Shown here one piece after another: positions 7,250-46,739 of a stretch of 55,785 nt of DNA (position 1 is the first letter of the stretch; the number at the start of each line of letters is the position of its first letter). The position numbers were made by a program, and so were the translations under genes. Under the pieces are notes generated by a model. The model ran no database searches. It was not told where the DNA came from and saw only the letters and a program-made list of their open reading frames with translations. The DNA is from Candidatus Aminicenantes bacterium (GTDB lineage: Bacteria; Acidobacteriota; Aminicenantia; Aminicenantales; Saccharicenantaceae). The stretch covers positions 1-55,785 of the forward strand of contig VGJC01000003.1 in assembly GCA_016867635.1 (NCBI GenBank), in the 5' to 3' direction.

Positions 7250-9829
7250 ATGACCGTTCCCTATTCGGCCGAGACCGTTCGTGAGCTCGTCCGCCTTCAC
7301 TCCCAACAGAAGGTCCATCGGGCGTTCCGCCTCAGCCGCCACGAGCCGGGGACGGTCCTTGAATACGAGCTCCAAGGCGTCTTTCCCGACGGGCGGGCCC
7401 GGGTCCGCCTCGAGATCGAGAGATTCGTGGGCGGAGGATACGCGGGCCAAGTCTACAAGGTCCGGCTGAGCGACGTCTCCGCCCTCGAGGGCCGGGTCGC
7501 AGGCCTGGAGCCCGGCCGCGAGTACGCCCTGAAGGTCCTTATCCCGCCCTCCGGGCTGGCCCGCGGCATCCGCGGCCTTCTCTATGCGATCGGCTTCCAG
7601 GCCCCGTTCTCTCTTCAGTCTTTGGCCACGGCCGGCCGTTCGCAGGCCTTGTGGCAGAAGTTCATCCGCCGGGCGGCCCGGGTCGAGTGGGGCCGCGAGG
7701 ACGCCGTCGTGGATGTCCTCGGGACGCTCGCCGACAGGGCGCTCGGGAGCTACGGCGAGCTCAGCGAATGGGTCGAGGGCCGCACGTGGCGACTCGAGGC
7801 GGACGACAACCTCGACGCCCGGCGCCGCTCCAAAGGCGGTCACTCCGGCCCGGCGGACGGCTCACCCGAGTACCGCGCCAAGCGCGCCTTCATGGACCGC
7901 CTGGTCCGGCTCATGCACGAGATAGGGGCCGTCGAGCTCGCGCGTCAGTACGAATGGTGGTCGCTCAAGAGCCAGCCCAACGTCCTCAAGCGGGCCGAGG
8001 CCGAGGGCCGCCCCGAGGCCGGGCTGGTCGCCGTCGATTTCCGGGCCGGCATGACACTCTTGCCGTTCCTCCCGCAGTGCCCGGCCGATATCAAGCTCAT
8101 CCTGCGGGGTCTCGGCCGCGGGCGGCTCGTCCAGTTCGACAAGGGCGATGTCGACAAGCTCGAGCGATACGTAGACGCGCGCGGGGACGATTTCGCCGAC
8201 CTGCGCCCGGCCCTGGGCCGGCTGCGCTCCGAGGACCGGGCCTATCGCGATTCCCTCATCGACCTCTCCTTTCATCACGTCCGGATTTTCGGCCGGGGCC
8301 TGCGCCGCCGGATCATGGCCGGCTTCCGGGAGAGCTGGCGTGTCCGCGGGATCACCGACGAGCGGGCCGCGGCGCGCCTCGAAAGGAGCGCGCTCCTGTC
8401 GGCCGTTTTCTTGTCCGCCGCTATTCTTCCGGCCCTCGCCCCCGTCCTGGCCGCCCTGGGGATCGTCACCGGGAACACCGGCTTTTTCTGGCCGGCCGGG
8501 GGGCTGCTTCTTCCGCCGTTCTTGAGGCGCCTGGCGGGCCGGGCCGATCTGCGCCGGCACTATGGCCGGATGGTCGCGAGTCCCGGGTACTTCATGCGGG
8601 CGGGCCGGGCCCGGATCGCGGAAGCGTTGGTCGGCTGGGTCCGGTCGGGCCGGTCCGGCGAGGCTCGGGCCCTGCGGATCGCCCGGGCCCCCTTTCTCTA
8701 TTTTCTGAACCTCACGTTGGCCTGGTTGCCGCCCGGGCTCCACCGGTTCCTGACCGACAAGGACCGTTTCCGCGAGCGTCTGAGGGCCATATTCGTCCAG
8801 CCGCTCCGGCTGCTCGTCCGGCCCGCCGAGCGAGAGCGTTGGCTGCTCGACATGGTCGCCCAAGGGCGGAAGAACGGGCTTCTCGGCGAGAACGAGGCCT
8901 CGGCCATCGCCGGTCAGATCAAGGAACCGTTCATCCAGAAATACCTCAAGAGCCTGGCCGTCCATCTGGCCACCCTGTTCGTGTCCGAGACCGTGTTCCT
9001 GACGGCCGCCATCGCCTACGTCGTCGCCCATCCCGAGCTTCCCTGGCACCAGGCCACCCTCCGGGCGGGCCTGATCATCGGCGCGCTGAACCTCCTGCCC
9101 ATCTCCCCGGGCTCGCTCGTCCGCGGGTTCTATGTCCTCGGACTGATGATCAAGGACCGCAACTTTAAGGACTACAACATCGCCTTCGGCGTGAGCTTCC
9201 TCAAGATCGTCGGCTACCTGGCCTTCCCCATCCAGATGACCTACCGCTACCCGGACCTGGCCCGTTTCATGGCCGGGCACTGGGCCACCGAAGCGGTCCA
9301 CAAGGTCCCCGTCTTCGGGGAGAAGGGGGCTTGGCTGGAGCACTTCGTCTTCGACATGTTCTACAACTACCCCCTGACCCTGCGGCGGCGCGTCCGCGAG
9401 AAAGCGGCGCTGCGGGCCGGGCAAAAGGCCAGGCGGTGGCCCGCGCTTGTCGTCGCCCTGGGGGCCCTCGCGGCCCTCCAAGGGATCGAGGCCCTTTATG
9501 CGCATGCGACGGGCCAGCCCCCCTCCTTCAGCCGGATCTGGTGGGCCGCCGCGGTGGTCCCCATTCTGGCCGGCAGTGTCACCGCGCTGTGGGCGGGCGG
9601 CCTCGCGACGGGCAAGCGGATCGTGCTGGGCATGGCCACGGCGGCCGTTGCCGGGCTCATCTATGGTCTGGCGCCGATCGTCCCCGGGGCCCTCCTGTTC
9701 GACGGGCTGGCCGCCGCGGGCAACGGCTCGCAGGTCATGTCGGCGGCCCGATCGGGGTTCGAGATGCTCATCCTCTTCGGCGTCCTGGGCCTCGCCGGGG
9801 CCGCGGTCGTCGAGACCCGCTCGGTCTGA
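7250..9829 (+). CDS. Hypothetical integral membrane protein with an N-terminal protein-kinase-like region
   Basis: 859-aa ORF with genome-typical codon usage; GGGYAGQVYKV...ALKV, QPNVL and VDF motifs; several hydrophobic helices in the C-terminal half. Confidence 0.7.
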   Translation: MTVPYSAETVRELVRLHSQQKVHRAFRLSRHEPGTVLEYELQGVFPDGRARVRLEIERFVGGGYAGQVYKVRLSDVSALEGRVAGLEPGREYALKVLIPPSGLARGIRGLLYAIGFQAPFSLQSLATAGRSQALWQKFIRRAARVEWGREDAVVDVLGTLADRALGSYGELSEWVEGRTWRLEADDNLDARRRSKGGHSGPADGSPEYRAKRAFMDRLVRLMHEIGAVELARQYEWWSLKSQPNVLKRAEAEGRPEAGLVAVDFRAGMTLLPFLPQCPADIKLILRGLGRGRLVQFDKGDVDKLERYVDARGDDFADLRPALGRLRSEDRAYRDSLIDLSFHHVRIFGRGLRRRIMAGFRESWRVRGITDERAAARLERSALLSAVFLSAAILPALAPVLAALGIVTGNTGFFWPAGGLLLPPFLRRLAGRADLRRHYGRMVASPGYFMRAGRARIAEALVGWVRSGRSGEARALRIARAPFLYFLNLTLAWLPPGLHRFLTDKDRFRERLRAIFVQPLRLLVRPAERERWLLDMVAQGRKNGLLGENEASAIAGQIKEPFIQKYLKSLAVHLATLFVSETVFLTAAIAYVVAHPELPWHQATLRAGLIIGALNLLPISPGSLVRGFYVLGLMIKDRNFKDYNIAFGVSFLKIVGYLAFPIQMTYRYPDLARFMAGHWATEAVHKVPVFGEKGAWLEHFVFDMFYNYPLTLRRRVREKAALRAGQKARRWPALVVALGALAALQGIEALYAHATGQPPSFSRIWWAAAVVPILAGSVTALWAGGLATGKRIVLGMATAAVAGLIYGLAPIVPGALLFDGLAAAGNGSQVMSAARSGFEMLILFGVLGLAGAAVVETRSV

Positions 9830-33355: not shown

Positions 33356-33745
33356 TTGATCTTCGGGGCCGGAACGGACATCATCGAAGTCCAGCGGGTC
33401 GAGGACAAGCTCCTGCGCACCGGCGGCCTCAAGGACCGGCTGTTCACGGCCCGCGAGATCGCCTACTGCGAGTCCAAGCACCGCCCGGCCCTGCACTTCG
33501 CGGCCCGGTTCGCGGCCAAGGAGGCCTTCCTCAAGGCCATGGGGACGGGCTGGTCGGGCGGCCACAAGTTCTCCGAGATCGAGGTCGTCAACAACGCCCT
33601 CGGCAAGCCCGAGCTCTTCGTCCACGGCAAGGTCCGGGAGTTTTGCGAGACCCACGGCATCGCGGCCATGGAAGTCTCGCTGACCCATATCAAGGACGTG
33701 GCCTCCGCGGTCGTCGTCCTCGAGAAAGAACCGACATCGACTTGA
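33356..33745 (+). CDS. acpS: Holo-ACP synthase (4'-phosphopantetheinyl transferase)
   Basis: G.DIIE..R, FT..E..YC, AARFAAKEA..KA.GTG, GKP, SLTH. Confidence 0.95.
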   Translation: MIFGAGTDIIEVQRVEDKLLRTGGLKDRLFTAREIAYCESKHRPALHFAARFAAKEAFLKAMGTGWSGGHKFSEIEVVNNALGKPELFVHGKVREFCETHGIAAMEVSLTHIKDVASAVVVLEKEPTST

Positions 33746-33762
33746 ACGGAGAAGGATCGCCC

Positions 33763-35466
<1,704 letters not shown>

Positions 35467-37179: not shown

Positions 37180-39105
37180 TCAGGCGGCCGCCCGGGCCTC
37201 GCCCTTGGCCGCGGCCCGGGTGAGCAGGGACACGACGATGAGAGTCAGGAAGCTCAGCGGGATCGAGACGATGCCGGGGTTCTTCAGGGGGAACGGCGCC
37301 GTCAGCGGGTCCTTGCCGTAGAGCTCGTACATCGTCGGCGAGAAGAGGATCAGGCCGATCGACGAGAAGACGCCGACGAAGATCGACGCCGTGATGCCCC
37401 GGGCGGTCGTCCGTTTCCAGAACAGCATCATGACGATCGACGGCAGGTTGGCTGAAGCCGCCACGGCGAAGGCCAACCCGACCAAGAAAGTGACGTTGAC
37501 GCCCTTGAAGAGGATCCCCAGAACGATGGCCAGCGCCCCGACGGCGAAGGCGACGACCTTGCCGGCGTTGACCTTCTGCCGGTCGCTCTTGATGACATTG
37601 GCGTAGCGGTCGAGCAGGTCATGGGCGACGGCGCCGGAAGCGGCAATGATCAGGCCGCTCACCGTGCCCAGGACGGTGGCGAAGGCGATGGCCGAGATCA
37701 TGGCGAACAGGAACGTCCCGAAGGACCGGGCCAGCAGCGGCGCCGACATGTTGTCGTCGAGCAGGTTGACGACCCCGTTGGTCATGGCCCCCAGGCCCAT
37801 GAACAGGGTCAGGATGTAGAAGAAGCCGATCCCGGCGATGGCCACGATGGTCGACTTGCGGGCGGCCGCCGGGCTGGGGACGGTGTAGTAGCGGATGAGG
37901 ATGTGCGGCAGGGCCGCGGTGCCCAGGAAGAGGGCCAGCATGAGCGACAGGAAGTCGATCCGGTCGGTCGACGTGCCCTCGACCTTGAAGCGCTGCCCCG
38001 GCCTGAGGATCTTGTTGCCGGCGGCCAGGACGGGGTAGTGCACCGTCAGCCGGCCCCCGTCGTCCTCGAACGAGGCGTTCTTCCAGAGCTTGACCCGGCT
38101 GTCGCGGTCCCCGATGAGCGACAGGAACTTGAAGGGGCCCAGGGGGCCGGTCTCGGCCGCCTCGCCCGTCCGTCCGGCGATCACGGCCATGTTGCCGACG
38201 GTGCGCAGCTGGTTCTCCCGGGAGGCCGGGGCTCCGTTGAAGGTCTGCGTCCCGTCGGCCAGGCGCGCCGCGAACTGCGACTCGAGGAGCGTCAGGCCGC
38301 CCGCCGCGGGGTCGGCCTCGACCTTCCACCAGCTCTCCTGCCCGTCGCGCAGGAGCTTGACGAAGCGCAGGCCATTGGCCTCGCGCACGGCCGCGATCTG
38401 CCAGGCCGGGTCCTCGAGCGCGAGCGACCCGCCGGCCTCGGTCGCGGCCAGGGTCCGGTATTCCTGGAACGGCACGCGGCCGCCCTGGTCGGGCTTGGTC
38501 GAAAGGCCCCGGATCAGGACGACCGTCACCAGGACGAGCGAGAACACCAGAAGGAGGGCGCCCTTGATGAACTGGACGTAGGTCGTCGAGGTCATGCCGG
38601 CCGTGGCCACGATGGTGATGACGATCAGGCCCACGAGGACGACGCCGACGGCGTGGGGCAGCCCGAGGAGGGGCGTCACCAGGACGCCCGCGCCGACCAT
38701 CTGGGGGATCAGGTAACAGATGGAAACCAGCAAGGTGCTGATGGCGGCCATCAGCTTGATCCCGCGATGGTTGTAGTTCGCGTCGAGGGCGTCCGTGAAG
38801 GTGTACTTGCCCAGCCGCTTGAGGGGCTCGGCGACGATGAACAGAGCGACCACCCAGCCGGCCAGGTACCCGATGGAGTAGAGAAAGCCGTCGTAGCCGG
38901 CCGTGGCGATCATGCCGCAGATGCCGAGGAAGGACGCGGCCGACAGGTAGTCGCCGGCGAAGGCGACGCCGTTGACGCCCCAATGGATCCGGCTGCCGGC
39001 GGCGTAGTAGCCGCTGGCCGACTTGGCCCGCCCGGCGAAATAGAAGGAGATGCCGAGGACGAAGCCGACGAAGAGGACGAACAGGACGATCGAAAGGACG
39101 TTCAT
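37180..39105 (-). CDS. actP: Cation/acetate symporter ActP (SSS family) with a large insertion
   Basis: NG.A.AGDYLSAASFLG, AEPL..LG.YTF.D, YLIPQMVGAG, GTAALPHIL.R.Y, AFATVLGTVSGL, AFAVAASANLP. Confidence 0.9.
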   Translation of the reverse strand: MNVLSIVLFVLFVGFVLGISFYFAGRAKSASGYYAAGSRIHWGVNGVAFAGDYLSAASFLGICGMIATAGYDGFLYSIGYLAGWVVALFIVAEPLKRLGKYTFTDALDANYNHRGIKLMAAISTLLVSICYLIPQMVGAGVLVTPLLGLPHAVGVVLVGLIVITIVATAGMTSTTYVQFIKGALLLVFSLVLVTVVLIRGLSTKPDQGGRVPFQEYRTLAATEAGGSLALEDPAWQIAAVREANGLRFVKLLRDGQESWWKVEADPAAGGLTLLESQFAARLADGTQTFNGAPASRENQLRTVGNMAVIAGRTGEAAETGPLGPFKFLSLIGDRDSRVKLWKNASFEDDGGRLTVHYPVLAAGNKILRPGQRFKVEGTSTDRIDFLSLMLALFLGTAALPHILIRYYTVPSPAAARKSTIVAIAGIGFFYILTLFMGLGAMTNGVVNLLDDNMSAPLLARSFGTFLFAMISAIAFATVLGTVSGLIIAASGAVAHDLLDRYANVIKSDRQKVNAGKVVAFAVGALAIVLGILFKGVNVTFLVGLAFAVAASANLPSIVMMLFWKRTTARGITASIFVGVFSSIGLILFSPTMYELYGKDPLTAPFPLKNPGIVSIPLSFLTLIVVSLLTRAAAKGEARAAA

Positions 39106-39395
39106 GCCCGCCCTCCCTGGGGATCGGCCCCTTGGAGGCGCTTCTCCCGCCGGCCGCAGGCCCGGTTATAGATGAGGGCCAGGAGGAGGGCGAAGACGAT
39201 CAGGCCGAAGCCGTAGACGACGGCCAGATTCAGCCCGCCGAACAGGACCTTCTCCATGGCGCTCGGCCTGACCAGGTTGATGACGACGAAACCGGCGTAG
39301 ACGAGCGCGTAGAGAATGAACATCCAGGCGCCCAGGCGCCGCTTGTACGAGAAAGCGGGGTCCGCCCCCGTTTTCGCCGCTGGTTCATGCAACAT
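39102..39395 (-). CDS. DUF485/YjcH-like small membrane protein
   Basis: Two TM helices; translationally coupled upstream of actP, the usual yjcH-actP arrangement. Confidence 0.82.
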   Translation of the reverse strand: MLHEPAAKTGADPAFSYKRRLGAWMFILYALVYAGFVVINLVRPSAMEKVLFGGLNLAVVYGFGLIVFALLLALIYNRACGRREKRLQGADPQGGRA

Positions 39396-39544
39396 GGGCC
39401 TCTGCCCTCCTTTTTTTGTGTCCGGCCGGCCTGTTCCGGCCCGTGTATGGGCCCGTCCGGCTGCTCGCGTGGCTAGCCTTTATCTCATAGCCGGGGGAAA
39501 AAATCAAGGACGCGGGCCGGGCCCGGCGCGGGCGGGACGGGCTA

Positions 39545-39574
39545 TTGACAGCGTTTCCGCGGAGGTGCTATGGT
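39545..39574 (+). promoter_or_regulatory. Putative sigma70 promoter of the PHP-Cache-NTase gene
   Basis: TTGACA-N18-TATGGT with an extended -10 TG. Confidence 0.55.
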
Positions 39575-39606
39575 GGGGCGGCCCCCTCGAGGGACCCGGA
39601 AGCCAA

Positions 39607-42600
39607 GTGCCAGAATCCGTCCGCATCAACCTCCACGGCCACTCCCATCTAAGCGACGGTGAGCTCACGCCGGGCCAGCTGGCCGAGCGGCTGGTCGCCG
39701 CGGGGGTCCGGACCGCGGCCCTTACCGATCACGACACGATCGAGGGACTCCCCGCCTTCCGCGAGGCCTTGACCCGGAAGGGCGTCGGTTTCGTCACGGG
39801 CGTCGAGTTGACCGTCGTCGACCTCGAGGAAGGGGAGAAGCACATTCTCGGATATGGCTTCGACCCCGACAACAAGGTCTTGGGAGACCTTCTGGGCCGG
39901 GCCGCGGGCCTGCGCCGGCCTTCCCCCCTGCAGGCCTTGTCCTCCGCGTTCGACAGGACCCGGTCGCCGGCCGAACGGCTGGCCACGGGGGCGGTCTCGC
40001 CGGGCGAGGCCATCCGCGCTCTCCACGAGGCGGGCGGCCTGGCCGTGCTCGCGCACCCGGTAGTCCCGGGGCAGAAGCCCGATCTCGCCGCGCTGGAAAA
40101 GCTGGTTTCCAAGTTCAAAGGCCTGGGATTGGACGGCATCGAAGCCTTTGGCTCCGCGTATTCCGAGGACCTCAGTCGAGACCTCGTGGCCTTAGCCGGC
40201 CGGCATGGCCTTCTCGTCAGCGCCGGCAGCGATTACCACGGTCCGGAGCTCTCGGCTTCGACGGAACTCGCCATAGACATGCCAGAGACGCTTTGGCGGG
40301 GCTTCCGGGACGGGCTCCTGCGGCGGGGCGCGGGGATGTCCGTCCGCCCGCCCCCCAGGGATTCGGCCGCCCGCCGCTCACTGCCGCGGCCGCACTGGAA
40401 CGCCTTTCTTCTCAGGATCATCCTGCCTACGGCCCTGGCCATCGGGCTCTTCGTCGTCTTCTTTTTCTGGGTTCTGATCCCCGCGTTCGAGGGCCGGCTG
40501 CTCGAGCGCAAACGGGACACCATCCGGGAACTCACGAACGTCGCCGCCGGCATCCTGGCCGAGTACGACGCCGACGTCCGGGCCGGCCGGCTGCCGCTCG
40601 CCGAGGCGCAGAGCATGGCGGCCGGACGCATCCAGGACTTGAGATACGGCAACGAAGGCAAGGACTATTTCTGGATCACCGACATGCGGGCGCGGATGAT
40701 CATGCATCCCTACCGGACGGACCTTAACGGTCGGGACGTCTCCGACTTCCAGGACCCCCGCGGCGTCCGGATCTTCGTGGAGTTCGTCAACGCCCTCCGC
40801 GACCAAGGCGACGCCTACGTCGAGTACGTCTGGCAATGGAAGGATGACCCGGACCGGCTGGAGCCCAAGCAGTCGTACATCAAGAAGTTCGCGCCCTGGG
40901 GATGGATCCTCGGGACCGGGCTTTACCTGGAGGACGTCCAGCGGGAGATCCGGGCCATGGCCGCCCGTCTTGTCCAGGTCTCCATCGGCATCACGGCCCT
41001 CTGCGCCATGCTCCTCCTGTTCGTCGCTGCCCAGAGCATGCGCATCGAGCGGCGCCGGGCCAAGGCGGAGGACGAGCTGCGTGAATCTCACGAAAGATAC
41101 CGGACGCTCGCCGAGTCCGCCACCGAAGGGACCCTGATGGTCCTCGAAGGGCGCCCGGCCTTCGCCAACCCGACGCTCCTCGACCTGCTCGACGTCACCG
41201 AGGACGAGCTCTCGCTGCTCGACCTGGCCGAGGTCTTTCCCGGCCTGGCCCTGTCCCAGCTCGAGGGTCCGGGACCCCCGGCCTCCGAGGAGACGGCCCT
41301 CCGGCGGCGCGACGGCTCGACGGTCGACGTCACCCTCTCGGCGGCCCGGCTCTCGTTCGCCGGGCGCCCGGGATTGGCCATCGCCGTCAGGCCCCTGCGG
41401 CCCGGCCGGCGCGGCGGGGCCGCGGCCGGCCGCGGCGACCGCGACCGGGATAACCTCATCGCCGACCTCCAGGCCTCCCTGATGTTCCTCAATGAGCCGG
41501 TCGCTCCGCTCGCCGGCGATCCCGTTTTCTGCGACATCAGGGACTCCGTGGCCGGAGGAGCCGCCCTTATGACGGCCCGGGGAGCGACCGCGGTCGTGGT
41601 CACGGCGGAGGGAGAACCGGTCGGGCTGGTCACGGACCTTGATATCCGGGCCCGCCTCGTGGCCCAAGGGCTGACGGGAGAGACCCCCCTGCACGCGATC
41701 ATGAGCGCCCCGCTCGTGTCGATCGAGAGCCGGGCCCTCGTTTACGAGGCCATCCTGACCATGCGGGAGAGGAACGTCGACCACCTCCTCGTCCGGGACG
41801 AGATGAACAAGGTGACCGGCGTCGTCCGCCACCGCGAGCTCCTGCTGTTCCACAGGTACTCGCTGGCCGTGCTCACCCAGGAGATCCGGCACGCCCCGAC
41901 GCCCGACGCGATCGCGGCCGCCCGCCGCGGCCTGCCCAACCTGGTCAAGGTCTTGGTCGAGGGCGGGGCCAAAGCGCGCAACATCACCCGGGCCGTGACC
42001 GCGGTGACCGACGCGGTCGTCATCCGGCTTCTCGAGCTCGGCGCCGCGGACCTCGGGCCGGCGCCGGCGCGGTTTTCTTTCCTGGCCCTGGGCAGCGAAG
42101 GCCGGGAAGAGCAGACGTTGGCCACGGACCAAGACCACGCCATCGTCTTTGAGGACGCGCCCGAGGAGGCCGTGGCCGACATCCAGGCCTATTTCCTCAA
42201 GCTGGGCCGGTTCGTGTCGGAGGGCATGGCCCTGGCCGGGTACCCGCTCTGCCTGGGAGAGGTCATGTCCGGCAACCCGCGCTGGTGCCAGCCGTTGAGG
42301 GTCTGGAAGGGGGATTTCGCCGAGTGGCTCAGAACGGCCGAGCCCAAGGACATCCTCGAGCTCAAGATCTTCTTCGATTTCCGGACCGTCCACGGAGAGG
42401 CGGAGTTCGCCGCCGAGCTCCGCCGCCACATCGACGGCGTCCTCGCCCAGGAGCCCCCGTTCCTCCTCCACTACGCCCAGTACACCCTGCAATACAAACC
42501 CCCCCTCAGCTTTTTCGGCCATATCGTCACCGAGGAGGGCAAGGAAGGCCACCGGACGTTCAACATCAAGGATGCCATGATGCCGGTGGTCAATTTCGCC

Positions 42601-42900
42601 CGGCTCTACGCCTTCCGCCACGGTGTCGCCGACGTCAATACTCTCGACAGGCTCCACGCCCTCCTGGGCCTCGGCACGCTCCGCGAGAGCCTCCACGACG
42701 AGGCGGCCAAGGTCTATGATTACCTCATGCAGCTTCGTCTGGCCCGCCAGGCCCGGGCGCTCGACAGGAACGAGGCCCCGGGAAATGACATCGATCCCAG
42801 CGAGCTGACCCACATCGAGGAGACGCTTCTGAAGCAGGCCTTCGCGCAGATCGCCAACATCCAGAAGAAGATCAGCTTCGATTTCCTCGGCGCGGCGTGA
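39607..42900 (+). CDS. Multidomain membrane protein: PHP - TM - sCache - TM - PAS - CBS pair - DUF294 nucleotidyltransferase
   Basis: PHP motifs LHGHS..SDG, TDHD, GVEL, HILGY, AHP, GSDYHG. Cache YFWI.D....M.MHP...L.G...YV.Y.W. CBS G.VTD.D.R. NTase LGSEGREEQ...TDQD, CLGEVM..NP.W, IFFDFR, NIK. Confidence 0.88.
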   Translation: MPESVRINLHGHSHLSDGELTPGQLAERLVAAGVRTAALTDHDTIEGLPAFREALTRKGVGFVTGVELTVVDLEEGEKHILGYGFDPDNKVLGDLLGRAAGLRRPSPLQALSSAFDRTRSPAERLATGAVSPGEAIRALHEAGGLAVLAHPVVPGQKPDLAALEKLVSKFKGLGLDGIEAFGSAYSEDLSRDLVALAGRHGLLVSAGSDYHGPELSASTELAIDMPETLWRGFRDGLLRRGAGMSVRPPPRDSAARRSLPRPHWNAFLLRIILPTALAIGLFVVFFFWVLIPAFEGRLLERKRDTIRELTNVAAGILAEYDADVRAGRLPLAEAQSMAAGRIQDLRYGNEGKDYFWITDMRARMIMHPYRTDLNGRDVSDFQDPRGVRIFVEFVNALRDQGDAYVEYVWQWKDDPDRLEPKQSYIKKFAPWGWILGTGLYLEDVQREIRAMAARLVQVSIGITALCAMLLLFVAAQSMRIERRRAKAEDELRESHERYRTLAESATEGTLMVLEGRPAFANPTLLDLLDVTEDELSLLDLAEVFPGLALSQLEGPGPPASEETALRRRDGSTVDVTLSAARLSFAGRPGLAIAVRPLRPGRRGGAAAGRGDRDRDNLIADLQASLMFLNEPVAPLAGDPVFCDIRDSVAGGAALMTARGATAVVVTAEGEPVGLVTDLDIRARLVAQGLTGETPLHAIMSAPLVSIESRALVYEAILTMRERNVDHLLVRDEMNKVTGVVRHRELLLFHRYSLAVLTQEIRHAPTPDAIAAARRGLPNLVKVLVEGGAKARNITRAVTAVTDAVVIRLLELGAADLGPAPARFSFLALGSEGREEQTLATDQDHAIVFEDAPEEAVADIQAYFLKLGRFVSEGMALAGYPLCLGEVMSGNPRWCQPLRVWKGDFAEWLRTAEPKDILELKIFFDFRTVHGEAEFAAELRRHIDGVLAQEPPFLLHYAQYTLQYKPPLSFFGHIVTEEGKEGHRTFNIKDAMMPVVNFARLYAFRHGVADVNTLDRLHALLGLGTLRESLHDEAAKVYDYLMQLRLARQARALDRNEAPGNDIDPSELTHIEETLLKQAFAQIANIQKKISFDFLGAA

Positions 42901-43007
42901 CGGCTCCCGGCTCGCCCGTCGCGTCGGGCCAAGTTGACCCGCGGCCGAAATCTGATATATTAATCCGCTCTGACGAAACGGGCTCACGTTGCCCAGAGGA
43001 GATCCGC

Positions 43008-45143
43008 ATGCCCAAGCGCTGGTCGATGGCCCTGGCTGTTGGGGCCGTGATGGCCGTCGTTCTCTCCGCCCAGTACACGCCGTGGCTCTATTGGACGTTC
43101 CTGCCGAAGGGCCAGATGGACGAGATCGTCGGCGAGGCCTCCGGCGAGGCGGCCTGGAACACGGTCGCCGAGATCAACGCCTTCAACCGCGAGCGGTTCG
43201 ACGACGAGTACACCGGGCTCTTCTTCGAGACCCGGGTCGTCCTCCGCAAGCTCGAGCAGTACGGGCTGGCGGGCGTCGAGGTCGTCGCCTACCCCGGCGG
43301 GCAGGCCTGGCGCCCGCTCAAGGGCGAGCTGTGGGAAACGAAGCCCGGACGGAGGAAGATCGCCTCCATCAACGACATGCTGCCGATGCTGGCCGCCGGC
43401 AGCGCCTCGACCGACGTCACGGCCGAGCTGGTCTGGATCGGACGGGGGACGCCCAAGGAGATCCAGGAGGCCAAGGTCGACGGCCGGATCGCCGTCTGCG
43501 AGGGGAGCCTCGGGGCGGCCTACGGGGCCTCGGTCCAACAGGGGGCGCTGGGGGTCGTCTCCATCAGCACGTCGCGGCCTTTCGAGGACCCGCTCCAGAT
43601 GCCCTGGGCGGGCATCTCCGGCCGCCGCCGGCCGGGGTCCGAACAGGCCGAGCCCGCCGGCCAGGAGCCGAAGTTCGCCTTCCAGCTGAACGCCCGCGAG
43701 GGCGACATCCTCAAGCGCCGGCTGCTCGCGGGCGAGAAGATCACCGCCCGGGCCGTGGTCGAGTCCAAGACCGAGACCGTCGACCTCGAGAACGTCGTCT
43801 GCCGCATCCCTGGCTCCGATCCGTCCGCCGGCGAGATCATCCTGTCGGCGCATCTTTTCGAAGGCTTCCAGAAGCAGGGGGCCAACGACAACATCTCCGG
43901 CAGCGCCGGCATCCTCGAGGTCGCCCGCGTCCTCCACACGCTCATCGAGGAGGGCCGCCTGCCCCGGCCCAAGCGGACCATCCGCTTCATCTGGGGCCCC
44001 GAGTTCTCGGGCATCGGCCTGTGGGTCCAGGCCAACCAGCCGCTCATGGAGAAGACGCTCTGCAACATCAACATGGACATGGTCGGGGAATGGCTGTCCA
44101 GGAACCAGGCCTTCTTCTGCCTGATGCGGACGACCTATGGCAATCCCCACTACATCAACGACGTCATGGAGAACTATTACCGGTATCTCGGGGAGGGCGG
44201 ACGGGAGCGCATCCAGAACCGGAGCACGCCCTTCCGGGTCCCGGTCCGCGTCGTCGCCCCGACGGGGTCCGACGAGCCTTTCGCCTATTCCATCGAGACC
44301 CACTACGGGGCCTCCGACCACGAGGTTTTCAACGACTGGGGGGTCGGCGTTCCCGGCATCATGATGATCGCCTGGCCCGACACCTGGTACCACACCTCCG
44401 GCGACACGGCCGACAAAGCCGACCCGACCCAGCTCAAACGGGCGGCGATCATCGGGGCGGCCGGGGCCTACACCGTGGCCGCCGCCGGCGCGGACATGGC
44501 CGCCCGGATCGCCGGCGAAACGGCCAGCAACGGGACGAGACGCCTGGGCCACCAGCTCGTCGTCGGGCTCGAGACGCTGAACGGCGCGGATGCCGGGTCT
44601 TTGGCCGAGGCTTACAAAACGGCCCGCTGGACGATCGAGGCGGCCGTCATGAACGAAAAGGAGACACTCGATTCCCTCCTCGAGCTGGCCCCGGGAGACG
44701 CCGCCCTCGCCGGCCATATCGGCCGGCTCAAGCAGGCCGTCCAGGCCGCCGGCGACGCCCAGGTCCTGGCCCTCGAGGCCCACGCGGACGCCGCGGCCCG
44801 CAGGCTCGGCGTGAAGCGAGGGACGATCGTCCTCTCGGACCTCGAGAAAAGGGCGGCCCGGTCCGTGCCCCGGCCGACGGCCCGGGTCCGCGAGAACGGC
44901 TACCGGGAGTATCAGAAATCGATCACGGCCGTCCCGGCCGCCGAGAGGGCCAAATATCCCGTCGCGGGCAAGGATCTCGCCCTGGCCAACGCCAACGAGC
45001 TCCAGCTGCTCATCGACGGCCGCCGCAGCGTTCTCGACATCAAGAAGATGCTCGACGCCCAATACGAGCGGAAGTCCACTCTGCAGGCCATCTTCAATCA
45101 CATCGAGGTCCTCAAGCTGGCCGGCCTGGTGGAGACGCGATAA
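43008..45143 (+). CDS. Secreted M28-family peptidase with PA domain
   Basis: Signal peptide; SAHL, GANDN.SG, PE, NMDMVG, SDH, YHTSGD. Confidence 0.85.
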   Translation: MPKRWSMALAVGAVMAVVLSAQYTPWLYWTFLPKGQMDEIVGEASGEAAWNTVAEINAFNRERFDDEYTGLFFETRVVLRKLEQYGLAGVEVVAYPGGQAWRPLKGELWETKPGRRKIASINDMLPMLAAGSASTDVTAELVWIGRGTPKEIQEAKVDGRIAVCEGSLGAAYGASVQQGALGVVSISTSRPFEDPLQMPWAGISGRRRPGSEQAEPAGQEPKFAFQLNAREGDILKRRLLAGEKITARAVVESKTETVDLENVVCRIPGSDPSAGEIILSAHLFEGFQKQGANDNISGSAGILEVARVLHTLIEEGRLPRPKRTIRFIWGPEFSGIGLWVQANQPLMEKTLCNINMDMVGEWLSRNQAFFCLMRTTYGNPHYINDVMENYYRYLGEGGRERIQNRSTPFRVPVRVVAPTGSDEPFAYSIETHYGASDHEVFNDWGVGVPGIMMIAWPDTWYHTSGDTADKADPTQLKRAAIIGAAGAYTVAAAGADMAARIAGETASNGTRRLGHQLVVGLETLNGADAGSLAEAYKTARWTIEAAVMNEKETLDSLLELAPGDAALAGHIGRLKQAVQAAGDAQVLALEAHADAAARRLGVKRGTIVLSDLEKRAARSVPRPTARVRENGYREYQKSITAVPAAERAKYPVAGKDLALANANELQLLIDGRRSVLDIKKMLDAQYERKSTLQAIFNHIEVLKLAGLVETR

Positions 45144-45167
45144 GGGCCGCGGGCCGGGAGGAAGGTC

Positions 45168-46739
45168 ATGAAGCTCCGCCGGAAAGACGCCTTTTGGTTC
45201 GGGGCCGCCGTCCTGGCCCTCCTGGCCCTCGTCTTCGCGGCCGGCTGCCGCCGCCCCGAGCCGCCGGCCCCCGTCGCGAAGCACGTCATCCTGTTCATCG
45301 GCGACGGCATGTCCCTGGGCTCGGAGATAGCCGCGAGCCGCTACCTCTACGGCCACGACCGCGGCCTGGCCTGGCACCCCTTCGCCGTCAAGGCGTACGT
45401 CGCGACCTGGGACGTCACGGCGTACGACAAGAACGCCGCCGCCGAAGGCCGGCCTCCGTACCGTGAAGGGACATTCAGCCCGTCCATCGGGTACGACGCC
45501 CAGCGCGAGGGGCGGGCGCCCCACCCGTGGGACACGCTGTTCCCGGCCCCGGCGGGGGCCATGAGGATCCGGCCGTCCGTCGATTCGGCCGCGGCCGCGA
45601 CGGCCATGGCCACGGGGCGAAAGACGGCCTCGGGCCGCGTCTCCTGGCTGCCCGACAAAGGCCCGGAAGGGCGTCTCCGGACGCTTGTCGAGGATTACCG
45701 GGAGGCGACGGGCGGGGCCGTCGGGGTCGTCAGCACGGTGCCCTTCAATCACGCGACACCCGCGCCCTTCGTCAGCCACAACATCAGCAGGACACATTAT
45801 TACACCGGCTATAAAGAGAAGCCCGGCACCGGCATCGCCGACGAGATCATCCGTGAGACGAGGCCGGACGTCGTCATCGGCGGCGGGCATCCGCTGCTCG
45901 CCAATCCCGGCCTCGATCCGGACAAGGGCTACATCTCCGCCGCCCTGCTCGACGAGCTCCGGGCGGAACGGGAATACGTGTTCGTCGAAAGGGAGCCCGG
46001 CGTCGACGGAGGGGTCGCCCTGCTGGCCGCCGCCGAAAGGGCGGTCGCCGAAGGCCGGAAGCTGTTCGGCCTGTTCGGCGGACCGGAGGGCAATTTCGAG
46101 ACGCCTGTCGCCGGGGACAGCCCGGGCTCGCCCTCGGTCGCCCGGGCCGCCCTGGAGAACCCCGCCCTTCTCGACGCGACGCTGGCGGCCCTGCGGGTCC
46201 TGGGCCAAAACCCCAGCGGCTTTTTCGTCATGATCGAGCAGGGCGACATCGACTGGGCCCACCACGACAACGATTTCGGGCGGATGATCGGCGCCATGTC
46301 CGACCTCGAAGAGGCCGTTCGGGCGGCCGTCGCCTATATCGACATGCCGGGAGACGCCGTCGATTGGACGAACACCCTGCTCCTCGTGACGGCCGATCAC
46401 ACCACGGGCCTGCTGAGGCTGGACCCCGGAAAGCCGATGGGCCTCGGCGACCTGCCCCGCCAGGACCGGCTCCCTGACGAGGACCTCAAGGCGAAACGGA
46501 AGGCGGCCGGCGCCGGCTACGTTTCCGAGTTCGTCTACCCCGACGGCGAGGTGAGCTACGGCACTTCGGGGCATGCCAACGAGCTGGTGACCCTGTCGGC
46601 GACGGGGGCCGGGGCCCGTCTCTTCATCGACTACAAGGGTCTGTGGTACCCGGGGCCGATCATCGACAACACCCACATCAACGCCGTGGCCCGCCGGGTC
46701 CTCGGCCTGGGACCGCTGCCCCGCGGCCCGCTCCCCTGA
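45168..46739 (+). CDS. Alkaline phosphatase (lipoprotein)
   Basis: Lipobox FAAGC; LFIGDGM, DSAAAATAMATG, HATPA, EQG.ID..HH, TADH, H.N. Confidence 0.9.
   Translation: MKLRRKDAFWFGAAVLALLALVFAAGCRRPEPPAPVAKHVILFIGDGMSLGSEIAASRYLYGHDRGLAWHPFAVKAYVATWDVTAYDKNAAAEGRPPYREGTFSPSIGYDAQREGRAPHPWDTLFPAPAGAMRIRPSVDSAAAATAMATGRKTASGRVSWLPDKGPEGRLRTLVEDYREATGGAVGVVSTVPFNHATPAPFVSHNISRTHYYTGYKEKPGTGIADEIIRETRPDVVIGGGHPLLANPGLDPDKGYISAALLDELRAEREYVFVEREPGVDGGVALLAAAERAVAEGRKLFGLFGGPEGNFETPVAGDSPGSPSVARAALENPALLDATLAALRVLGQNPSGFFVMIEQGDIDWAHHDNDFGRMIGAMSDLEEAVRAAVAYIDMPGDAVDWTNTLLLVTADHTTGLLRLDPGKPMGLGDLPRQDRLPDEDLKAKRKAAGAGYVSEFVYPDGEVSYGTSGHANELVTLSATGAGARLFIDYKGLWYPGPIIDNTHINAVARRVLGLGPLPRGPLP

Follow-up and report, generated by a model that had tools for sequence, protein, structure and literature searches.

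What a bacterium might do with a membrane protein that carries a phosphoesterase domain, an extracytoplasmic sensor and a nucleotidyltransferase (NTase) in a single chain is the question raised by a gene at 39607-42900 (plus strand) of a 55,785-nt stretch of DNA from a Candidatus Aminicenantes bacterium (GenBank assembly GCA_016867635.1, contig VGJC01000003.1; the whole stretch is called the window below). The gene encodes 1097 amino acids plus stop, in the order PHP, transmembrane (TM) segment, sCache_2, TM segment, PAS-like domain, two CBS domains, DUF294 and DUF294_C, and it neighbours genes for a DUF485 protein and a sodium:solute symporter (SSF). Genes of the DUF294/COG2905 family and their 'exonuclease' partners adjoin acetate or monocarboxylate transporter genes in many bacteria, including Pseudomonas and Shewanella. 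The best explanation of our data is that the receptor belongs to a monocarboxylate-uptake module with DUF485 and an ActP/MctC-like symporter, and we propose, at a probability of about 0.45, that it senses carboxylates and switches the symporter complex by reversible nucleotidylylation. Central to this proposal is the observation that each DUF294 class has its own kind of phosphoesterase and that these kinds are mutually exclusive.

The receptor is a real fusion, widely conserved across many phyla. The reading frame is uninterrupted from 39316 to 42900 in the open reading frame (ORF) listing of the window, and contigs X3 (4982 nt) and X4 (4608 nt) from other sequencing runs each span 39300-43000 unbroken, with 3 substitutions and 0 indels. 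Both come from lake-water metagenomes of one year, possibly from one campaign or from the source of the window's own DNA, and because they may lack independence the conservation across phyla is the stronger argument against an artefact. PHP, Cache and DUF294 domains occur together in 113 of the 120 best database homologues (six had no PHP match and one no DUF294), and the same fusion is present at 43 genome loci from many phyla. Relatives of the Cache-DUF294 core numbered 597 in a scan of one genome per species, and the 80 best-matching ones include metagenome-assembled genomes (MAGs) labelled Aminicenantes, Chloroflexota, Spirochaetota, Armatimonadota, NC10, Gemmatimonadota, Planctomycetota, Bacteroidota and Kiritimatiellia, among others. 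The existence of a few relatives with a split gene might suggest that assembly or a frameshift joined a PHP gene to a Cache-DUF294 gene, but with indel-free contigs crossing the gene and the fusion recurring in this many homologues the probability of such an error is negligible. An earlier sequence-only reading of the locus had named a junction artefact and a lack of fused homologues as the two outcomes that would count against the fusion, and neither was found.

The split relatives are of several forms. PHP is an ORF of its own in L097:9845-13272, PHP-Cache and CBS-NTase are two ORFs in L107:2446-6275, the break falls within the CBS pair in L025:9959-13217, and G007:C26:94192-97402 is divided over three frames; these could reflect true splits, pseudogenes or errors in long reads. 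In a set of 40 related genomes, 7 of the 24 that share the window's genus have a full or split orthologue, as do 2 of the 16 from elsewhere in the order, so the receptor gene is accessory. The architecture is new, in that it is undescribed in the open-access papers and bioRxiv preprints covered, where no paper on a characterised protein of this kind was found, as the sequence-only reading had supposed; the family itself is already known, with hundreds of homologues public under generic names.

Classification of the DUF294 loci revealed which phosphoesterase accompanies which architecture. The Cache-type set comprised the best 80 of the 597 relatives, 79 of which were classed (L077, whose contig ends after the Cache domain, was dropped): 43 are PHP-fused, 35 are PHP-less and begin at the first TM helix, and one, L097, is split, its PHP forming a separate 309-aa ORF that overlaps the receptor ORF by 4 nt (ORF lengths from the locus scripts, which took the first start codon after a stop, are upper bounds). 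Neighbouring genes were clustered and the cluster representatives scanned with Pfam. A calcineurin-like (Metallophos) gene adjoins the receptor gene on the same strand at 24 of the 35 PHP-less loci, with the motifs DxH, GD, GNH, H and GHxH conserved across the 24 sequences and no close relative in NCBIfam or the PDB (best matches, a phosphodiesterase model at 23.3 bits and MJ0936 at an E-value of 0.043). At the PHP-fused loci a calcineurin-like or DEDDh partner was found in 0/43 cases, or 0/28 counting those with >=3 kb on each side. The soluble cNMP-CBS-DUF294 type was represented by 80 metagenome loci found with it, in 70 of which the contig extends >=700 nt past the DUF294 gene; in 57 of these 70 a co-directional DEDDh gene follows within 500 nt, and PHP, a calcineurin-like gene or a Cache domain occurred in 0/80. 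An even draw across the phylum, of 200 genomes besides the one with the window (201 in all), yielded nine further strong DUF294 loci: four soluble cNMP-CBS-DUF294 genes, with an RNase_T/DEDDh gene directly next in 4/4 and DUF485 plus SSF in all three that had enough flank, two PHP-less receptors with a calcineurin-like gene, one without, one PHP-fused receptor and one split.

The sequence-only reading had held that the usual partner nuclease is missing here and had asked whether PHP fusion and the DEDDh gene avoid one another at such loci. Both ideas stood: a DEDDh profile built from three seeds had no match in the window, the sole RNase_T match in the 93%-complete genome sits on another contig, and the DEDDh gene follows the soluble form and is absent beside the PHP-fused one. 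Its view of the partners needs correction in one respect, as the third partner type is a calcineurin-like phosphoesterase. The suggestion that PHP stands in for the nuclease fits the class-specific pattern, but few independent events lie behind that pattern. Taken together, the distribution of partners supports, well but not conclusively, the view that the three esterases are functionally equivalent.

A quick maximum-likelihood tree of the NTase (85 rows, excluding L094 and the second paralogue of L067, which were too short) set four soluble proteins apart from all Cache-type forms (Shimodaira-Hasegawa-like likelihood-ratio support, SH-aLRT, of 99) and united 40 of the 43 PHP rows with L097 and L067 in one group (SH-aLRT 91), with three long-branch PHP rows elsewhere and the calcineurin-partnered forms scattered below the PHP group. 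The well-supported branches may allow as few as one origin of the PHP fusion. The DEDDh profile matched 1 of the 80 Cache-type loci, the PHP-less L067 (L067:7455-15302, from a MAG labelled Myxococcales), where a soluble cNMP-CBS-DUF294 gene, a DEDDh gene, a PHP-less receptor, DUF485 and SSF follow one another on one strand; two DUF294 paralogues thus have one exonuclease gene and one symporter between them, and the receptor stands at the base of the PHP group.

The link to the symporter is apparent in the window and across the locus set. The gene for the DUF485 protein, a small membrane protein of 97 aa (39102-39395, minus strand; Pfam 6.2e-11), is divergent from the receptor gene, as noted earlier from the sequence, and is followed by the ActP/MctC-like SSF gene (37180-39105, minus strand; 641 aa, Pfam SSF), whose product scored 427.7 bits against the MctC and 391.5 bits against the ActP model of NCBIfam, both under the cut-offs. 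DUF485 adjoins the receptor in 8/8 close relatives. In 26 relatives, receptor and symporter were both present in 7 and both absent in 16, and the three mismatches consist of a contig starting inside the symporter gene, a contig ending at DUF485 and a genome in which 41 residues of ActP are left beside an intact receptor. These genes are clearly gained and lost together, in relatives that are kin rather than independent observations. The last of the mismatches, L015 (G019:C1), carries the 41-residue symporter remnant at ~7767-7895, with receptor and DUF485 intact.

Over the wider set, SSF lies within 6 kb at 32/43 PHP-class, 22/35 PHP-less and 1/1 split loci, or at 23/28 PHP-class and 17/23 PHP-less loci with flanks of >=3 kb. 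DUF485 was found at 27/43 PHP-class and 11/35 PHP-less loci, and DUF4212 at no fewer than seven (>=7) PHP-less loci. The most frequent PHP-class arrangement, seen at 20 loci, has DUF485, SSF and receptor in that order, closely spaced on one strand, and the divergent order of DUF485/symporter and receptor is that of the window's clade. The DUF485 and SSF profiles, derived from Cache-type loci, lose sensitivity at soluble ones, where the DUF485 profile found 0/80, yet Pfam found DUF485 at 3/3 of those checked. The AlphaFold2 model of the symporter further contains an extra beta-rich domain after six TM helices (~residues 200-378; 37972-38508 of the window, minus strand; per-residue confidence, pLDDT, 80-90), and >=179 residues occupy this insert region in 27/33 PHP-class and 13/25 PHP-less symporters, compared with 38-40 residues in three encoded beside soluble DUF294 genes. 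Judging from the model, this domain is probably extracytoplasmic and could touch the Cache domain outside the membrane; a Foldseek search with the symporter model returned SSF transporters alone and no fold family for the insert.

What the receptor might sense can be predicted from its sCache_2 domain (40504-40962; residues 300-452; Pfam 4.9e-37, 127.7 bits). Its closest PDB sequences are 4k08 (6.4e-31) and 5g4y (6.6e-29), which also match it in fold, with TMt values of 0.92 and 0.91, respectively, at 35-38% identity. The structural study of PscD lists seven propionate contacts, Y90, W92, H103, F126, Y143, W145 and K156, which are identical in the acetate-binding McpP and in Adeh_3718 (PMC5062169). 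By alignment these seven map to Y354, W356, H367, F390, Y407, W409 and K421 of the receptor, all identical (7/7), and all seven are invariant across the 113 homologues. The domain is therefore a predicted sensor of C2/C3 monocarboxylates with a complete pocket, in keeping with the earlier assignment of sCache_2 to a short-carboxylate type. The receptor has Phe393 where PscD has Met129, and the pocket may consequently be narrower. PscD, McpP and Adeh_3718 (5g4y/5g4z and 4k08) thus resemble the receptor in Cache fold and contacts, and differ from it in their output, which is an MCP domain rather than PAS-CBS-NTase.

The catalytic domains are intact on either side of this sensor. All five Pfam families in the chain (PHP, sCache_2, CBS, DUF294 and DUF294_C) exceed their cut-offs; conservation was read from an alignment of the 113 homologues, the same number of rows supporting an AlphaFold2 model with a mean pLDDT of 83 and a pTM of 0.47, and Foldseek matches were examined at ranks 1-50 with gaps. 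The PHP phosphoesterase domain, predicted to be cytoplasmic, occupies 39607-40341 (residues 1-245; Pfam match 9-79, 1.2e-9). Alignment to 2yb1, 3e0f and 7ug9 identifies nine metal ligands, H10, H12, D17, H42, E67, H79, H150, D209 and H211; D41, H42, E67, H79, H150, D209 and H211 are invariant, and H10, H12 and D17 are conserved at >=90%. The fold is recovered by Foldseek (2yb1, E-value 1.9e-13; 7ug9, TMt 0.81). An insert at ~94-133 is ~45 residues shorter than the helical insert of 2yb1, varies among homologues and is poorly modelled (pLDDT <50 at 104-118). Scored alone against NCBIfam, the domain reached 124.5 bits with NF041577 (cut-off 400) and 104.7 bits with NF047791 (cut-off 375), and we classify it from these matches as a predicted PHP-superfamily phosphoesterase that is not an equivalog of either enzyme.

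At the other end, the DUF294 NTase core (41932-42348; residues 776-914; Pfam 4.4e-42, 143.7 bits against a cut-off of 21) contains G829-S830-x-G832-R833 followed by D841-Q842-D843. This is the G-x11-D-x-D pattern, the name given to the motif of Pol-beta NTases. G829, S830, G832, R833, D841, Q842, D843 and D924 are invariant, and D924 is a candidate third carboxylate. DUF294_C, a helical domain (42457-42885; residues 951-1093; Pfam 5.6e-38, 130.4 bits against a cut-off of 22.5), belongs to the Pfam clan of the GlnD/GlnE C-terminal domain, with which a review of HEPN-like domains groups it (PMC3710099). The NTase and helical domain together find the N-terminal domain of GlnE (1v4a, E-value 8.6e-9, 401 columns), DrrA (6yx5_B, 8.2e-8, TMt 0.69, 363 columns) and the adenylylation domain of GlnE (3k7d, 6.8e-7); one homologue, P0104, carries a precomputed GlnE match (PF03710). 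NTase folds of RNA polymerase or cyclic-nucleotide synthase type were not seen at the ranks examined, and a comparison of residues 765-1097 with named protein clusters, two DUF294 families being skipped, gave no usable match. The uninterrupted multidomain frame, the complete PHP ligands, the intact NTase motif and the kinship to GlnD/GlnE proposed in the sequence-only reading were all borne out by these comparisons.

Between sensor and NTase lie two further putative input domains. The TM segments that frame the Cache domain (40399-40503, residues ~265-299, within a long model helix at 264-325; and 40960-41046, residues ~452-480, within a model helix at 441-502) were placed by hydropathy, and their arginine-rich flanks together with the usual topology of Cache receptors suggest that PHP and PAS-CBS-NTase share the cytoplasmic side. 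The PAS-like domain (41092-41400; residues ~496-598), also suspected earlier, is weak by sequence (PAS_8 at an E-value of 0.0057; TIGR00229, PAS S-box, at 20.8 bits against a cut-off of 22.9) and better seen in the model, where residues 508-596 have a sheet and strand order of PAS type and match the PAS domains of PpsR and FixL in Foldseek. The CBS pair (41515-41889; residues ~637-761; two Pfam matches, 2.1e-11, 44.4 bits) lies directly N-terminal of the NTase and resembles CBS proteins of the PDB, including 2ef7 and 2rif in Foldseek. No cNMP_binding domain was matched by Pfam in the receptor, and neither Pfam nor NCBIfam detected HisKA, HATPase or REC. With sensor and output domains in one chain and no phosphotransfer domains, the protein would be classed by its domain content as a one-component receptor, the NTase being the presumed regulated output. 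A complex prediction for PHP (1-245) with CBS-NTase (612-1097), both with 113-row alignments, returned a score of 0.00 and gives no verdict.

These features can be combined in a mechanism in which NTase (writer) and PHP (eraser) would be opposing activities on one substrate. Acetate, propionate or pyruvate bound outside the cell, together with a cytoplasmic signal received through PAS and CBS, would shift the balance of writer and eraser. The substrate would be a protein hydroxyl that receives a nucleoside monophosphate (NMP), as in GlnD, GlnE and DrrA; this acceptor is suggested by the GlnE/DrrA-like fold combined with signalling inputs (Cache, PAS, CBS or, in the soluble form, cNMP). Because of the co-inheritance with the symporter, the likeliest target would be the neighbouring symporter complex, at SSF or DUF485. 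The outcome would be a fast tuning of weak-acid uptake, with logic like that of GlnD-GlnK-AmtB collapsed into one chain. The use of three unrelated phosphoesterase partners argues that generic phosphoester hydrolysis matters here, and not DNA or RNA exonuclease activity as such. A paired NTase/esterase switch that serves the symporter module is, in our estimate, rather probable; the fuller claim that this switch works by protein nucleotidylylation falls somewhat short of even odds. More doubtful is the furthest-reaching version, in which this would be the first transmembrane receptor with reversible protein nucleotidylylation as its output, marking the DUF485-ActP symporter, and DEDDh, calcineurin-like and PHP proteins would be three non-homologous erasers. 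Were it true, nucleotidylylation would join phosphorylation and methylation as an output of bacterial transmembrane receptors. In any case, the membrane variants provide a sensor with a predictable ligand (a C2/C3 carboxylate) and a tight co-inheritance with one symporter subtype, which turns a vaguely defined regulator into a testable writer/eraser hypothesis for the rapid control of weak-acid uptake.

Several points weigh against the proposed nucleotidylylation switch. No measurement of activity, ligand or target for any DUF294 protein was found in the open-access papers and bioRxiv preprints covered, and likeness to the GlnE and DrrA folds is not proof of a protein substrate. Since the PHP rows form mostly one group in the NTase tree, '0/43' does not amount to 43 independent observations, and the number of replacement events behind the partner pattern is a handful rather than dozens. 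The DEDDh profile, with its three seeds, could miss divergent genes. A recognised adjoining phosphoesterase was absent at 10 of the 35 PHP-less Cache loci (including one on a contig of 1.1 kb) and at L109, and 13 of the 70 soluble loci had no DEDDh gene directly downstream. No fourth partner type emerged at the 10 PHP-less loci without a calcineurin-like gene, the neighbours of which encode a YceI protein, a helicase-HNH protein, a nitroreductase, an SDR and several ORFs without Pfam matches. Likewise, neighbouring ORFs scanned at 10 of the 11 soluble loci where the profile found no DEDDh gene (DUF2887, a sigma-54 activator, a metallo-beta-lactamase-fold gene, a Na+/H+ antiporter, a peptidase and unknowns) revealed no consistent alternative partner. 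The beta-rich domain of the symporter is not the modified site, because it is probably outside the cell.

The identity of the partners raises a different reading, in which the NTase makes or extends a small nucleotide, an oligonucleotide or an RNA end that serves as a signal or marks an RNA, the partner degrades it, and control of the symporter is indirect, for example through expression. DEDDh enzymes, PHP proteins of the RNase AM/pAp-phosphatase type and calcineurin-like enzymes are known chiefly as nucleases or nucleotide phosphodiesterases; all three families include such enzymes, and a nucleotide substrate would suit them no less well than a protein-NMP one. The nearest matches of the PHP domain are RNase AM and the model for 3',5'-nucleoside bisphosphate phosphatase (PDB 2yb1, 7ug9 and 9etk), and RNase AM can substitute for the DEDDh enzyme Orn on dinucleotides, taking its place as diribonuclease (PMC11528712). 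In a 2016 preprint, Price et al. report that some DUF4212 small subunits of SSF transporters cofit with a nearby COG2905 gene and speculate that COG2905 is needed for symporter expression (10.1101/072470). Against this, the nearest NTase folds are those of the protein AMPylators GlnE and DrrA, the PHP scores lie far under the NCBIfam cut-offs with the insert short, poorly conserved and modelled at low confidence, and no RNA motif or signal receptor was identified, no RNA-family search having been run on the locus. A nucleotide or RNA substrate is, in our estimate, rather improbable, yet it is a serious competitor to protein nucleotidylylation.

The target of the same switch could, instead of the symporter complex, be acetyl-CoA synthetase, as the sequence-only reading had allowed, or another cytoplasmic enzyme of acetate metabolism. 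An acetate--CoA ligase gene (33643-35466, plus strand; NF003313, 747.5 bits against a cut-off of 729) lies 4 kb off in the window and also occurs in close relatives, and the authors of a 2026 preprint draw a comparison with Acs acetylation (10.64898/2026.09.07.749794). An Acs-like neighbour cluster within 6 kb is nevertheless present at only 5 of the 79 loci, of which four are PHP-class and belong to the window's clade or lie close to it, compared with 54-55 of 79 for the SSF cluster across phyla, and in Pseudomonas the genes PP_0353-PP_0354 are, by gene tags in that source, far from acsA-I (PP_4487). Acs is thus poorly supported as a target and we rate it very unlikely. That there is no coupling at all, a housekeeping-type PHP having been fused by chance and the phosphoesterases beside other classes being coincidental, would agree with a possible single origin of the fusion. 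Three phosphoesterase families placed beside or inside DUF294 genes at high frequency and to mutual exclusion, PHP ligands invariant across phyla, and a split form, L097, that keeps PHP translationally coupled through the 4-nt overlap make such coincidence highly improbable.

Among known systems, the receptor departs from the canonical soluble cNMP architecture with its DEDDh partner and is a variant architecture of the DUF294 family (PF03445 plus PF10335). With the soluble COG2905 and DEDDh pair of Pseudomonas alloputida (PP_0354 and PP_0353) it has in common the core of CBS pair, DUF294 and DUF294_C, proximity to DUF485/SSF genes and pairing with a phosphoesterase, whereas it has TM-sCache_2-TM-PAS in place of cNMP and a fused PHP in place of a separate DEDDh gene. 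According to the September 2026 preprint, the operon of PP_0353 (RNase T-like) and PP_0354 (cNMP, two CBS, NTase) is among the most MxtR/ErdR-dependent genes, deletion of either weakens growth on propionate and deletion of PP_0353 impairs growth on pyruvate, and its authors suggest protein modification as a possible function of this pair (10.64898/2026.09.07.749794). MxtR/ErdR (CrbS/CrbR), which controls acs and actP, has the theme of short-chain carboxylate uptake and use in common with the receptor, but is a transcriptional system with a histidine kinase, and the receptor has neither a kinase nor a DNA-binding domain.

GlnD combines sensor domains with adding and removing activities, which is the logic proposed here for the receptor. 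Like GlnD and GlnE, the receptor has a Pol-beta-type NTase bearing G-x11-D-x-D, and its helical C-domain shares a Pfam clan with theirs; unlike them, it is membrane-bound, has no HD or ACT domain, contains a single rather than a tandem NTase, and its putative remover is PHP. No GlnD or GlnE model was among its 24 NCBIfam and 10 Pfam matches. The AMPylation domain of DrrA/SidM from Legionella resembles the receptor NTase in fold at 14% sequence identity, but DrrA is a secreted effector that acts on host Rab proteins and has no sensor module. Cv1693 (2yb1) and RNase AM/YciV (7ug9, 9etk) have the same trinuclear-site ligands and TIM-like PHP fold as the receptor, whose PHP domain differs in its shortened, variable insert and in being tethered to a membrane receptor.

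Two gene families were additionally observed near other DUF294 genes. A ~420-aa family without Pfam matches is encoded upstream of the calcineurin-like gene and receptor at L048:3544-4809, L098:8629-9900 and six further loci; it is spread over seven PHP-less loci (several labelled Bacteroidota) and one PHP-class locus, and may belong to the module. At L183:7068-7856, a convergent metallo-beta-lactamase-fold gene lies by a soluble DUF294 gene without DEDDh partner, a single case that was not counted as a partner type.

With respect to the gene itself, GTG at 39607 was taken as the start, because the starts of homologues agree and a conserved promoter lies just upstream. The resulting 1097-aa protein is identical to database protein P0003 (100% identity, 100% query coverage), and homologue N-termini lie 7-9 residues ahead of the first H-x-H motif. 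The promoter of the receptor gene (39545-39574, plus strand) is of sigma-70 type, with TTGACA, an 18-nt spacer and an extended -10 element, TGnTATGGT (10/12 matches in the scan), and both hexamers are unchanged in nine relatives. The divergent intergenic region of 211 nt contains two blocks that are invariant in these relatives, with a plain sigma-70-like promoter in each direction; the second block (39473-39508, minus strand; invariant columns of alignment A3) looks, by eye rather than by any tool output, like a -35/-10 pair for DUF485-actP, and no obvious regulator site was seen between the two. In RNA runs X23 and X24, the share of sampled words was 0.07-0.09. Downstream of the receptor gene, a peptidase M28 gene and an alkaline phosphatase gene (42897-46739) are kept in synteny in 5 of 8 fetched close relatives, a sixth retaining a portion of M28. 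In its called form the peptidase ORF has a 4-nt overlap with the receptor stop, its homologues align from residue 34 on only, and a promoter-like site at 42934-42961 lies inside the called region; for these last two reasons the true M28 start is probably a later one.

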